DNA of 64,000 nt. Source: Candidatus Falkowbacteria bacterium (GTDB taxonomy: Bacteria; Patescibacteriota; Patescibacteriia; Patescibacteriales; UBA12465). Where the stretch lies: assembly GCA_037134915.1 (NCBI GenBank), contig JBAXLJ010000002.1:192935-256934 (forward strand), read 5' to 3'. A program made the position numbers and the translations under genes. Below, piece by piece: positions 48,142 through 57,774 of this stretch; the first letter of the stretch is position 1, and each line of letters opens with the position of its first letter. The notes beneath the pieces are model-generated. The model worked only from the letters and a program-made list of their open reading frames with translations, was not told the origin of the DNA and did no database searches.

Positions 48142-48169
48142 TTGACATTATCTAGAATTGTGTTATAAT
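48142..48169 (+). promoter_or_regulatory. Near-consensus sigma-70 promoter facing away from both flanking genes
   Basis: TTGACA (48142-48147), a 16-nt spacer, then TGtTATAAT (48161-48169). Confidence 0.6.
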
Positions 48170-48175
48170 TAGCTA

Positions 48176-48290
48176 ACTATACAAAATGTATATTAAAGCC
48201 TTATAGCCATTAAGAACTACTAAAGTTGAACGTCCCGGGAACCCCTCCTTCTGGTGCCACGTCAATCAAGTACCTTAATGGCTTTTTTAT
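48176..48290 (+). ncRNA. Candidate ~115-nt sRNA, antisense to the rpmE-prfA intergenic transcript
   Basis: Bounded by the promoter above and by the closing stem GCCATTAAG (48206-48214)/CTTAATGGC (48274-48282) plus TTTTTTATTT. Inner helix TTGAACGT/ACGTCAA. The apical region carries CCCCTCCTTCT (48242-48252). No family identified. Confidence 0.45.
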
Positions 48291-48374
48291 TTAAAAAAAT
48301 AATCAGCCATTTTCTTCTTAGATTAAAGTTAAAACTAAAATCAAAAGACTGGCTGATTATTTTTATTGATGAAG

Positions 48375-55511: not shown

Positions 55512-56273
55512 ATGATTAAAAAATTCTTACAGGATATTGGTTTAAATGAAAAAGAAGTCAGCATCTATTTGGAATTGCTCCGAGTTGATAATAACTCAGT
55601 TTTAGATTTGGCCAAGAAGACTGGTATTTTGCGAACTTCGATTTATTCCATTATTGAATCATTAAAAGAGAAGGGCTTGGTTTCCGAAATTGAAGTTGGC
55701 AAGAAAATTAATTTCCAAGCAGAACCGCCAGAAAGAATTGCGGCCTTTATTGAATCACAGCGATTAAAAGTTGAAGAACAGTCTCAACTGGCTAATGAAT
55801 TTATTCCGCAGCTTCGAAGTTTGTCCCGTCAAACTGGAGAAAAACCAGTGGTTAAAGTTTATGAAGGGCGCGAAGGTATCTTCAAGGCTAACGAAGAATC
55901 ATTCGGATACGGAAAATCAAACCAAAATGACACTGCTTACTTTATCTACCCTTACGATTTAATTGAAAATCTATTTTCTGGACAGGAAATAAAAAAATCC
56001 AGTACACAGCGAATTAATCGCCGCATTAAATCACGAGCTATTTATACTTATTCTAAGGGCGACCGACCTAAAAGCGAAGACTCTATCAGATTAAAAATAG
56101 ACGGCCAAAAATATCCGATTAAGTGCGATATCAGCATCTTTAAAGATATGATTCGCATCCACACCTTAGGCAAATCTCTTTCGTCTTTAGTGATAAAAAG
56201 TCAAGATATCGCTGACACTCTTAAGTCTTTATTTGAAGCTGTCTTTGATAGTCAAAAAAAGCTTGAAAAATAA
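55512..56273 (+). CDS. TrmB-like HTH transcriptional regulator
   Basis: N-terminal wHTH LGLNEKEVSIYLELLRVDNNSVLDLAKKTGILRTSIYSIIESLKEKGLV. Confidence 0.7.
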   Translation: MIKKFLQDIGLNEKEVSIYLELLRVDNNSVLDLAKKTGILRTSIYSIIESLKEKGLVSEIEVGKKINFQAEPPERIAAFIESQRLKVEEQSQLANEFIPQLRSLSRQTGEKPVVKVYEGREGIFKANEESFGYGKSNQNDTAYFIYPYDLIENLFSGQEIKKSSTQRINRRIKSRAIYTYSKGDRPKSEDSIRLKIDGQKYPIKCDISIFKDMIRIHTLGKSLSSLVIKSQDIADTLKSLFEAVFDSQKKLEK

Positions 56274-56532
56274 AAAAAGGGTCGCCTGCTTGTGCAAACG
56301 ACCCCATTACCAAAATTAAAACTTTTTTCGATTAGCCCCTCTAAGGAGCTTCATTAAAATTTTCCAGAAAACAAATTTTTTTAATCACCCACTTTCGGCC
56401 TCCTTTCTTAAAAATTAAATTTACAAATCACTATAAGAGACATAAGACCCACTTAGGGCGAAGGTGGCGCTGATGCAGCACCAACCTTCGTTAAGTTTTA
56501 GTCTTGCATGGCTCCTCCTTTTTTAAGTTGTT
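56272..56532 (-). ncRNA. Candidate ~260-nt non-coding transcript (promoter-to-terminator unit without ORF)
   Basis: Minus-strand promoter at 56567-56539. Minus-strand terminator GGGTCG-n14-CGACCC plus TTTTTTT (56304-56272). Internal hairpin CGAAGGTTGG..CCACCTTCG. Two strong AGGAGG motifs, each followed by a 3-codon mini-ORF. The longest ORF is ~14 codons. Confidence 0.4.
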
Positions 56533-56538
56533 GCTAAG

Positions 56539-56567
56539 AATCTAACATATAAAAAAATTATTGTCAA
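56539..56567 (-). promoter_or_regulatory. Sigma-70-type promoter (minus strand)
   Basis: TTGACA (56567-56562), a 17-nt spacer, then TAGATT (56544-56539). Confidence 0.45.
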
Positions 56568-56803
56568 TATTATTATTAAAACGTTTTATTTTAAATACAG
56601 AAAATATTTTAATATTAAACAAAAAAACTAGTAAAGCGGTTACTACGTCAAAAGTTTTCCACAGATATAGCGATAGTTTCTAATATTTTTTAATTTTTTG
56701 GTTATTTTTATAAAAGAGTTTATAATTTAAAACATTTTATTTTATACAAAGTCCTATTAATTAGGCCTTTTTTATTATCTATAATTAAAAGTGACAAATA
56801 CTA

Positions 56804-56832
56804 TTGACAAATATTTAGATATAATCTAGACT
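56804..56832 (+). promoter_or_regulatory. Promoter-like element upstream of the structured leader
   Basis: TTGACA (56804-56809), a 17-nt spacer, then TAGACT (56827-56832). A TATAAT at 56820-56825 has the wrong spacing. Ambiguous in AT-rich DNA. Confidence 0.35.
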
Positions 56833-56861
56833 CTCTTTACGAGTTATTTTGGTTCTTTTTA

Positions 56862-57133
56862 AAAGGCTTAATGCAGTTGCTAATACAAACGGAGTATTAG
56901 CATAGCCTTTCGAGCACGTGATTATTAGCTATCTTAAGCAAAAGCATATCCGTCTTGCCGAGCTCGCCGAGCTACAAGTATGATAATGCGACGGGATACC
57001 CCCAATTTAAGGGGGTGCAGGGAAAAGCCCTGCTAGTTCGAAAAATCGACATAAAAGTCGAAAACTGTTTGGGGCAATTTTTCGAAATTGCCCCTCAACT
57101 CTAGTTTCTAAATACTTGGAAACTGAAGTTGAG
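56862..57133 (+). promoter_or_regulatory. Highly structured non-coding leader (seven consecutive hairpins) upstream of the 57160 operon
   Basis: Hairpins at 56862-56910, 56947-56998, 56999-57015 (CCCCC/GGGGG), 57017-57033 (GCAGGG/CCCTGC), 57046-57061, 57071-57094 (10 bp + UUCG loop) and 57095-57133. None is followed by a U-tract. Confidence 0.5.
56928..56973 (+). repeat. Tentative diverged copy of the 28-nt tRNA-end-like element
   Basis: ..CTATCTTA[agcaaaagca]TATCCGTCTTGCCGAGCT compared with copy C CAATCTTATCCCTGTCTCCGAGCA. CCGAGCT is duplicated (56958-56964 and 56967-56973). Confidence 0.25.
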
Positions 57134-57159
57134 TTTGAACCTTTAAAATTAAATATAAG

Positions 57160-57774
57160 ATGAAAAAGAAAGTTAAACGCCCGGAACTGAAAGATTTATT
57201 TTGCGATCAAATAAATCAGTTGCTAAAGCTCGGCTATCCATCTGAGATTATCAGCCGTTTTAAATCTAAAGAAACTGATTTACTAGATGTTTGCGAGAAC
57301 TTAGATTTTTTAGAAGAACAAACACCCTTTATGCCGGTGGTGCCTGAAAAAGTTTTAGCTTATCGCGATCAAGCGAGTCTTGTCTCTAAAATGCCTTATC
57401 TTAAAAACACTTTAGATGTTCGAGGCTGGCGCCATCATTTACTGGAGAAACTTCAAAATACCTATATTCCAAATTTTTCCAGCCAACCCTATTACCTTGT
57501 TGGAGTAGTTATAGCCGAGGAACCCGAATTAAACGGTCTTTTAAAAATAAATCATGAGGAAGGATTTGCAATCACCGCTTTAAAACCAGAGCTGTTAAAA
57601 CATCAACGAATGCTAGCCGCTACGGCCTGCGATTGGGAAGGTGACGAAACAGCCGTGATTCATTTAACGGTCTTAGAAGCGGGCTTTAACGAATATTATA
57701 TTGCCGCTGATTGGCGCACCGCCAAAAGATGTCAGAACCTCTCTTATGGTTTTTGCCAAAGTAGATTAATCTAA
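57160..57774 (+). CDS. Hypothetical protein (204 aa), no recognised domain
   Basis: Long ORF following the structured leader. First of three co-oriented genes. Confidence 0.55.
   Translation: MKKKVKRPELKDLFCDQINQLLKLGYPSEIISRFKSKETDLLDVCENLDFLEEQTPFMPVVPEKVLAYRDQASLVSKMPYLKNTLDVRGWRHHLLEKLQNTYIPNFSSQPYYLVGVVIAEEPELNGLLKINHEEGFAITALKPELLKHQRMLAATACDWEGDETAVIHLTVLEAGFNEYYIAADWRTAKRCQNLSYGFCQSRLI

Follow-up and report, generated by a model that had tools for sequence, protein, structure and literature searches.

A conserved RNA with Asp-ending three-codon reading frames beside a TrmB-like gene in Parcubacteria

The 64,000-nt window analyzed here (C2:192935-256934, that is, positions 192,935 to 256,934 of contig JBAXLJ010000002.1) belongs to the genome of a Candidatus Falkowbacteria bacterium (GenBank assembly GCA_037134915.1; 980,682 bp, 96% complete). 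On its minus strand, at about 56532-56272, lies a predicted RNA of about 260 nt with two perfect Shine-Dalgarno (SD) sequences, each followed by an open reading frame (ORF) of only three codons. What such mini-ORFs might be for, in a genome that otherwise hardly uses SD sequences, is the question that this locus raises. The RNA is convergent with a gene for a TrmB/TrmBL2-like DNA-binding protein, and the two recur together in other genomes. That a conserved module of this RNA and this gene exists is virtually certain, and the RNA represents a previously undescribed family of Parcubacteria (Patescibacteria); a literature search returned no description of such an RNA in either group.

A first-pass annotation, made from the nucleotide sequence of the window, had pointed out an independent RNA running from promoter to terminator without a long ORF. 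This is borne out; no ORF of at least 30 aa is found on the minus strand between 56314 and 56560. The promoter TTGACA-17 nt-TAGATT, both SD-led mini-ORFs, the hairpin, and the terminator that it listed are all present on that strand, and only the span of the hairpin, given as 56494-56459, needs correction: its true start is 56490, so the claimed one was 4 nt too far 5'. The SD-led mini-ORFs of that account stand; what had escaped it is that the RNA is always paired with the TrmB-like gene, that the Asp codon of the mini-ORFs is strict, and that the hairpin loop pairs with a start codon.

A predicted RNA and its partner gene

The elements of the locus are the following, with comparisons to G006, a relative from the same genus.

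55512 to 56273, plus strand: partner gene, encoding a TrmB/TrmBL2-like winged-helix DNA-binding protein of 253 aa (Pfam, AlphaFold, and Foldseek).
56271 to 56305, minus strand: intrinsic terminator, a 12-bp stem (56305-56278) followed by a T run, adjoining the stop codon of the convergent TrmB-like gene.
56381 to 56392, minus strand: mini-ORF 2, GTG GGT GAT TAA (M-G-D-stop), from sequence inspection.
56399 to 56405, minus strand: SD2, AAGGAGG, 6 nt (ccgaaa) 5' of the GTG, from sequence inspection.
56448 to 56458, minus strand: CCCUAAGUGGG, a small 3-bp hairpin or conserved motif right after hairpin 1, invariant between the window and G006.
56459 to 56490, minus strand: hairpin 1, with a 6-bp plus 8-bp stem and the loop CAU, beginning 7 nt past the stop codon of mini-ORF 1.
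56498 to 56509, minus strand: mini-ORF 1, ATG CAA GAC TAA (M-Q-D-stop), from sequence inspection.
56514 to 56520, minus strand: SD1, AAGGAGG, 4 nt (agcc) 5' of the ATG, a perfect 7-nt match to the anti-SD sequence.
56539 to 56567, minus strand: promoter TTGACA-17 nt-TAGATT with an extended -10 TG, from sequence inspection.
56655 to 56663, plus strand: DnaA-box-like TTTTCCACA, with 1 mismatch to TTATCCACA, upstream of the RNA promoter.

The putative transcription start of the RNA lies near 56532, and the predicted 264-nt transcript folds more stably than shuffled sequences (z = -3.68). Promoters with a consensus -35 element and a TGn-extended -10 element are found at the equivalent position of the homologous loci, and an equivalent terminator in every homologous locus whose sequence was displayed. 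The spacer upstream of the RNA promoter has a GC content of 16 to 23%, and beyond it begins an unrelated plus-strand unit.

The partner protein matches the Pfam family TrmB (PF01978) with an E value of 9.7e-14. Its AlphaFold model (pLDDT 88.8), in which helix H74-107 is followed by a beta-rich domain, has the architecture of the TrmB family, consisting of an N-terminal winged helix, a long coiled-coil helix, and a C-terminal alpha/beta domain. The best Foldseek match of this model, over its full length, is the archaeal chromatin protein TrmBL2 (5bpd; E = 1e-11). A sequence search of PDB with the partner protein matched only the winged helix-turn-helix (wHTH), and the defense and phage libraries PADLOC and PHROGs likewise returned wHTH-level matches only. 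Paralogues of the TrmB-like protein, with 21 to 32% identity, are encoded in 36 other family genomes.

BLASTN searches of 40 relatives find a single homologue of the RNA, in G006, at the same place after the TrmB-like gene; the other matches are AT-rich noise. Covariance models reach further members in other genera: model R1 has matches in 5 of 148 genomes, and model R2 has credible matches in 6 genomes, plus one in G048 at E = 0.065 (locus L046), which is a true member. The R2 matches L040 to L045, L047, and L048 fall inside coding sequences or lack the hairpin and were rejected, L042 and L044 being judged from the alignments only and L040, L041, L043, L045, L047, and L048 in their genomic context. 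The protein gene reaches further still. TrmB-like orthologues with 67 to 75% identity are encoded in 8 of the 148 family genomes, and in all 8 the RNA is convergent with them, as recognized by the covariance model in 7 cases and by reading the sequence in G022. A scan of one genome per species adds orthologues with 39 to 52% identity in other Parcubacteria lineages, which leads to 31 usable loci. Their database labels, some of them evidently wrong, are Falkowbacteria, Paceibacterota, Zambryskibacteria, Vogelbacteria, and Lloydbacteria. With the window's own locus, these make the 32 loci counted below; L102 and L104, which have partial TrmB-like matches and downstream regions that may not be comparable, are retained among them, and four further loci, L105 to L108 (23 to 27% identity), are left out of all counts. 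Model R2 misses the distant loci, with 14 matches at E values up to 1 over 31 sources, of which 5 are below 1e-5.

An Rfam scan of the window at gathering thresholds and a scan of 56000-57200 at E <= 10 provide no credible match for the RNA, so the suggestion that it might be 6S RNA or belong to another Rfam family is not supported. Chance matches on the terminator to MIR6135, PyrR, DUF3800-I, and CRISPR-DR were discarded, those to CRISPR-DR (E = 0.35 and 7) being AT-rich noise. An identity with signal recognition particle (SRP) RNA or 6S RNA was rejected since RF00169, RF01854, and RF00013 are unmatched anywhere in the genome and the characteristic features of these two RNAs are missing from the present one. 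A T-box leader was rejected as well: there is no downstream gene on the strand and no match to RF00230, and the neighboring lysyl-tRNA synthetase (LysRS) gene is on the other strand and not conserved. A link to aspartyl-tRNA synthetase was likewise rejected, the aminoacyl-tRNA synthetase gene next to the module being this LysRS gene, which the other loci do not share.

Among the 22 neighboring window proteins compared by tblastn, the TrmB-like protein is the only one whose gene is shared between loci; the flanking genes differ, and no transporter, modification, or cas genes are conserved near the module. Across the same genomes, identities of the TrmB-like protein are flat (67 to 75%), whereas those of LysRS range from 57 to 81% with a different rank order. 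Within its own genus, the module is carried by 2 of 11 genomes. These flat identities and the patchy occurrence suggest that the RNA and the TrmB-like gene form an accessory and probably mobile two-gene module. In G101, the mini-ORFs of the RNA are degenerate and the protein gene is intact.

Two side observations concern individual loci. About 60 to 130 nt upstream of the TrmB-like start in L083 and L085, the sequence resembles, by eye, the 3' part of a tRNA gene, as would be expected of a mobile module that integrates beside tRNA genes. In G006, the RNA is immediately preceded on its own strand by a 222-aa ORF (L002 1595-2263, minus strand), which ends 23 nt before mini-ORF 1. This ORF has no family match in NCBIfam, PADLOC, or PHROGs, and the arrangement indicates that in G006 the RNA may be a 3' untranslated region or that an insertion may have separated the RNA from its promoter.

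A metatranscriptome contig covers part of the unit. It comes from X3, an RNA library made from the sample that probably also yielded the DNA; this 184-nt contig of depth 23.9 matches 56325-56508 with 0 differences and lies wholly inside the predicted transcript. RNA contigs fall on neither the TrmB-like gene nor the AT-rich spacer, and contigs of X3 and X4 also cover 56847-57050, in the neighboring plus-strand leader. Such contigs do not reveal strand, ends, or levels, DNA may be present in an RNA library, and neither stretches devoid of RNA contigs nor run X4, which is nearly free of matching words, are evidence of absence. Because the cover is confined to the two predicted noncoding units, and uniform DNA carry-over would look different, it argues for transcription: the RNA is real and expressed.

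Three-codon frames and the hairpin behind them

The mini-ORFs follow a common rule. In the 450 nt past the TrmB-like stop codon on the RNA strand of the 32 loci (14.4 kb), the pattern RTG-NNN-GAY-stop is found 42 times, compared with 0 on the opposite strand and 3 in the 299 kb of the remaining locus sequences, both strands included. Put another way, 42 of the 61 three-codon ORFs in the RNA-strand regions end in Asp, versus 3 of 288 elsewhere. At least one such frame is present in 23 of the 32 loci and at least two in 17. The 42 frames start with ATG (38) or GTG (4), encode Asp by GAC (30) or GAT (12), and stop at TAA (24), TAG (12), or TGA (6), and their middle codons specify 17 different residues. 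Homologues of mini-ORF 1 (ORF1) read MHD, MAD, MQD (with a TGA stop), MQD (with CAG), MND, MED, MID, MFD, MSD, and others; those of mini-ORF 2 (ORF2) include GTG GGA GAT TAA (G048), ATG GGT GAT TAA (G022), ATG GTC GAT TAA (G006), and ATG TAC GAC followed by TAA or TAG (G147 and G125).

Synonymous changes of the start, the Asp codon, and the stop around a free codon are a signature of decoding rather than base pairing, and the use of all three stop codons fits decoding by release factors. The conservation is of the coding type, that of a three-codon frame. The 9 loci that lack the exact pattern have variants, longer M-X-D frames, or partial protein matches. Variant frames, given here up to their stops, are MQN (G101), MWN, MGDC, MGDAD, MNG, and MGEK, with MGH and MDH recognized by eye; the longer ones read MGDAPVQP and MVDQKL, and one begins with MGDMK.

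An SD match of at least 5 nt precedes 32 of the 42 frames, and one of at least 7 nt precedes 18. In the family, it often has the form AAGGAGGT(G), located 3 to 7 nt from the start codon. The AGGAGG motifs are kept in the homologous regions, where the first-pass annotation had proposed to look for their loss, so its own test favors the finding, and the two SD-led three-codon mini-ORFs that it singled out are the conserved core of the RNA element. The least conserved parts are the regions outside the mini-ORF and hairpin modules.

The earlier statement that SD sequences are rare in this genome also holds: GGAGG or AGGAG is found at positions -20 to -4 of the first ATG in 21 of 767 ORFs of at least 150 aa, compared with 6 of 767 in a control window. 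The SD positions of these 767 ORFs have a small peak at -15 to -11, which suggests that the SD works when present. Apart from the two of this RNA, the 0.98-Mb genome contains no SD-led M-X-D-stop frame. The anti-SD tail GGATCACCTCCTTT is intact in G006, G002, and G021, the three relatives in which a 16S rRNA was found. In the window's own assembly, searches did not find 16S rRNA, 6S RNA, or SRP RNA (small or large model), possibly because of assembly gaps or divergent genes. ARAGORN predicts 43 tRNAs in it, none for Phe or Trp, for which an assembly gap or divergence is again possible, and the transfer-messenger RNA is found elsewhere in the genome (C1:89350-89724).

A decayed gene as the origin of the unit is rejected: there is no frame of at least 30 aa, and with three types of stop codon at one position, no single stop reassignment opens the frames. 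A 59-aa ORF in G006 that might have suggested such a gene is not conserved and has a noncoding substitution pattern, read by eye. Chance or a decayed gene is excluded by the conservation, the grammar of the mini-ORFs, and the structure.

In every member, a long hairpin follows 7 to 20 nt past the ORF1 stop, and the 70 nt after ORF1 fold with -21 to -42 kcal/mol across the listed loci. Hairpin 1 of the window's RNA differs from its G006 counterpart by 2 compensatory pairs. The motif CCCUAAGUGGG behind it has the counterparts CCCC(C)AGAGGG, CCCCUAGAGGG, and CCCUACGGGG in G125, G147, G019, and G101. A pairing of GGAGG with a UCUCY located past the hairpin is possible in the window and G006; it is not kept in G125 and G147.

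A structure alignment of 12 of the more distant loci, chosen for showing the loop motif, provides further support for the hairpin: 97% of cells are paired, and both partners have changed in 13 of the 14 stem pairs. The apical loop of these 12 loci, with the consensus ..CAUAG.., is complementary to the stretch from -3 to +5 that surrounds the AUG of ORF1. The resulting pseudoknot helix would comprise 9 pairs, of which 6 have changed in both partners; the AUG:CAU pairs are invariant, and the second codon covaries with the 5' portion of the loop. For hairpin and pseudoknot together, 93.8% of cells pair, compared with 35 to 46% when the partners are slid by 1 to 3 columns, and 0 of 500 shuffles come as high; the percentage for the pseudoknot helix is biased upward, the 12 loci having been selected by their motif. 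An unselected count finds a loop-AUG complementarity in cis of at least 7 nt in 9 of 25 loci, versus 15 of 600 mismatched locus pairs; L082, mis-scored by the script, is a tenth locus, with 9 nt. For the ORF2 start codon, no consistent pairing partner was found across the loci.

Possible functions of the RNA

It seems fairly probable that the function of the RNA depends on ribosomes decoding its mini-ORFs. More specifically, and as a tentative proposal that falls a little short of probable, it may act as toxic minigenes and CreT RNAs do: in being translated, it would trap ribosomes or the only tRNA-Asp, and the TrmB-like protein would control it. The perfect SD sequences would capture 30S subunits, the three codons would be translated over and over, and ribosomes would be tied up together with the P-site tRNA of the last sense codon, tRNA-Asp(GUC), held as peptidyl-tRNA or in slowly terminating complexes. 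As a result, translation would be throttled or arrested. The long hairpin just downstream would clamp the first mini-ORF. A trap for tRNA-Asp and ribosomes is proposed because the last sense codon is conserved and tRNA-Asp(GUC), the only Asp isoacceptor of the cell, is encoded by a single gene.

The TrmB-like protein is a candidate transcriptional controller of the RNA, the promoter of which is very strong, and might act on this promoter in the manner of an antitoxin or a governor. Pairing of the hairpin loop with the start codon, seen in many members, would keep an abundant RNA translationally latent until the pseudoknot opens, which could reconcile its apparent abundance with potential toxicity. 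We infer translation of the mini-ORFs, trapping of tRNA-Asp or ribosomes, repression by the TrmB-like protein, and toxicity from these features. The full picture of a novel toxin-antitoxin or growth-governor module, with an RNA toxin that is silenced by a protein transcription factor, in the absence of CRISPR, and whose two Met-X-Asp minigenes hijack a nearly idle SD/anti-SD interaction under pseudoknot-mediated latency, is rather doubtful.

The comparison with CreT, the type VIII-like RNA toxin of CRISPR-regulated toxin-antitoxin (CreTA) modules, draws on portions of two reports, which describe such systems in Haloarcula hispanica, Halobacterium hubeiense, and, as a "proline-codon toxin," Pseudomonas aeruginosa. 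According to these portions, CreT toxicity requires an SD or another efficient start, a mini-ORF, and a stable hairpin, and the haloarchaeal CreT uses two consecutive rare codons, the Pseudomonas toxin Pro-Pro (PMC8501985; bioRxiv 10.64898/2026.06.02.729485). As far as these portions go, the likeness extends to a small RNA that looks noncoding, an efficient start, a mini-ORF (4 to 6 codons in CreT), a GC-rich hairpin downstream, an action via translation and not via the peptide, an immediate stop that is conserved and nonessential, and a dedicated transcriptional silencer. In the RNA described here, efficient starts directly precede the mini-ORFs (AAGGAGG-N4-ATG and AAGGAGG-N6-GTG), and a stable, covarying stem-loop follows downstream. 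Its critical codons, however, are neither a pair of rare ones (AGA, AUA) nor Pro-Pro, since it has a free codon and Asp, and it lacks the setting of CreT, which lies in a CRISPR-cas locus beside a CreA gene with degenerate repeats and is repressed by Cascade (no CRISPR array was found in the genome). It is partnered by a TrmBL2-like protein, each RNA has two mini-ORFs, and many members have the loop-AUG pseudoknot. Because two defining features of CreTA fail, the RNA should not be filed as a member of CreT.

The toxic minigenes, among them phage lambda bar and synthetic ones of 2 to 8 codons, share with the mini-ORFs an SD-led ORF of 2 to 4 codons, here within the 2-to-8-codon range and ending in a stop codon. 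In the parts of the minigene literature used here, toxicity is set by the length, the strength of the ribosome-binding site, and the last sense codon, the tRNA of which is depleted as peptidyl-tRNA (PMC8708949, PMC2490762), and the shortest minigenes inhibit most (PMC2490762). The searched passages of PMC2490762 contain no occurrence of Asp minigenes, and Asp is the last codon here. In contrast to those minigenes, the family here is natural and conserved, and its mini-ORFs have a structured RNA of their own and a regulator as partner.

Latency through RNA structure has its own precedent. The type I toxin mRNAs (hok, tisB, and aapA1) are made as inert primary transcripts, in which the initiation region is hidden by intramolecular pairing. 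They resemble the RNA in being abundant and latent through pairing over the translation-initiation region, whereas their products are membrane-toxic peptides of 20 to 60 aa, controlled by antisense RNAs; here, there are 3 codons and no antisense RNA is evident. STAB-SD is a ribosome-binding stabilizer of the RNA 5' end. Like the six-codon mini-ORF of LEE4, it exemplifies a strong SD or mini-ORF that lies close to the 5' end and does not serve protein production. Both, however, stabilize a downstream coding mRNA and have no conserved codon identity, whereas the RNA has no downstream gene and a strict Asp codon.

Several observations weigh against an RNA that is toxic through its translation. 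It is apparently well expressed in situ, which one would not expect of a toxin under tight repression except in the case of latency, and in the window's own member the loop-AUG pairing is limited to 5 nt (AUGCA:UGCAU) that overlap with the stem, the top of which would have to open, so that a start-codon pseudoknot is not established there. The upward bias of the pairing percentage mentioned above belongs here too. Asp is a common codon and is found once per frame, and the genome encodes Pth, which would counteract trapping by drop-off. The stop is not always immediate (MGDC, MGDAD, MGDAPVQP, and MVDQKL), and the SD is absent from ORF1 of G019, G022, and G048 and from ORF2 of G006. Finally, by-eye inspection recognized no operator common to the RNA promoter and the TrmB-like promoters.

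Of the explanations that do without a translation trap, a stable trans-acting or scaffold RNA, in which the SD sequences and mini-ORFs would only recruit ribosomes or 30S subunits as a protection against 5'-end-dependent decay, in the manner of STAB-SD and LEE4-type stabilizers, and the function would reside in other parts, agrees with the seeming abundance of the RNA, its near-consensus promoters, and its stable fold (z = -3.68). Such protection needs no fixed length of three codons, no Asp, and no stop, yet all of these are conserved, while the parts that would have to carry the function are the least conserved ones; this explanation also leaves the obligatory TrmB-like partner unaccounted for and is considered unlikely. 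The convergent layout in every locus with a recognized RNA, with the terminator adjoining the stop of the protein gene, could instead suggest a translation-sensing cis-antisense controller of the TrmB-like gene, in which ribosome occupancy of the mini-ORFs (e.g., upon limitation of Asp-tRNA or release factors) would set the balance between termination and antisense read-through. The succession of mini-ORF, hairpins, and terminator does resemble leader-peptide attenuators, but ORF2 lies 75 to 200 nt before the terminator, no conserved antiterminator pairing was found, and a single Asp codon would be a weak sensor compared with known leader peptides. A weaker point, given that contigs cannot show ends, is that the RNA contig ends at 56325, before the terminator, with none over the TrmB-like gene. 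Overall, this possibility appears quite improbable.

Since the start, stop, and SD signals look genuine and the C-terminal Asp is conserved, the RNA might also be the mRNA for two functional (f)Met-X-Asp tripeptides, which could be signals, precursors of a cofactor, or ligands of the TrmB-like protein. TrmB-family regulators are ligand-controlled. A specific peptide is unlikely, however, when the middle residue takes 17 identities and codon 2 covaries with the hairpin loop in 12 loci, its sequence being set by RNA pairing; with no transporter or modification genes conserved nearby, this proposal has very little to recommend it. Equally slight is the chance of the two alternatives offered by the first-pass annotation, a titrating RNA of the CsrB/RsmY type and a sponge or partner for a C-rich small RNA candidate at 48176-48290. 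The AAGGAGG motifs are indeed complementary to CCUCCUU in the latter, but that candidate has no BLAST-level homologue in 40 relatives, including the module-carrying G006. A CsrB-like titration of protein is opposed by the presence of only two GGA-rich sites, located outside hairpin loops, by the lack of an Rfam match, and by the failure to find CsrA (PF02599 is unmatched) or Hfq in the 96% complete genome. Among the regulatory options of that annotation, a ribosome-engaging or regulatory mini-ORF remains the best reading, and CsrB-like titration and the C-rich partner are dropped.

If the minigene- or CreT-like reading is correct, mini-ORF RNA toxins would extend beyond CRISPR loci, in the form of an RNA toxin with a protein repressor that resembles a toxin-antitoxin pair. 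Under the full, rather doubtful picture drawn above, CreT-like "codon toxins" would be a general, independently evolved strategy that reaches the candidate phyla radiation, and toxicity could be determined by which codon comes last before the stop instead of by how rare a codon is. Almost nothing is known about regulatory RNAs of the candidate phyla radiation, for which the present family is a conserved, expressed, and structurally supported example. What it adds to translation-dependent mini-ORF RNAs is the partner, the codon rule, and the structural feature. Its explicit grammar (SD, start, any codon, Asp, stop, twice) is directly testable in cell-free translation, and translation-dependent RNAs of this kind may bear on why scarce users of SD sequences keep an intact anti-SD. 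Should the minigene- or CreT-like reading fail, translation biology would be left with a sharply defined phenomenon in need of an explanation, namely the strict rule of Asp and then stop together with the start-codon pseudoknot.

Neighboring motifs and candidate RNAs

The region 56530-56700, upstream of the RNA, takes in a DnaA-type box, TGTGGAAAA. An exact TTATCCACA is found at the equivalent place in 9 of the 32 loci and one with at most 1 mismatch in 14; the whole genome contains 10 exact boxes. This DnaA-box-like motif may be an operator, either a DnaA site or an operator of the TrmB-like protein. An origin of replication at the locus, which the box and the AT-rich spacer might suggest, was rejected: dnaA is on another contig, and the GC skew is monotonic along C2.

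The window contains two other candidate RNA units, both on the plus strand. The unit at 48143-48292, which includes the C-rich candidate, consists of a TTGACA-17-TATAAT promoter, a long hairpin with the apical, anti-SD-like CCCCUCCUUCU, and a T run. The second, a candidate structured RNA or 5' leader at 56804-57159, diverges from the same spacer as the RNA described here and is not conserved with its module. It has no Rfam match at E <= 10 and precedes a 204-aa ORF that has no match in Pfam or NCBIfam. Its promoter, TTGACA-17-TAGACT (56804-56832), is followed by a GC-rich stretch of 325 nt that folds far more stably than its shuffles (z = -7.07).

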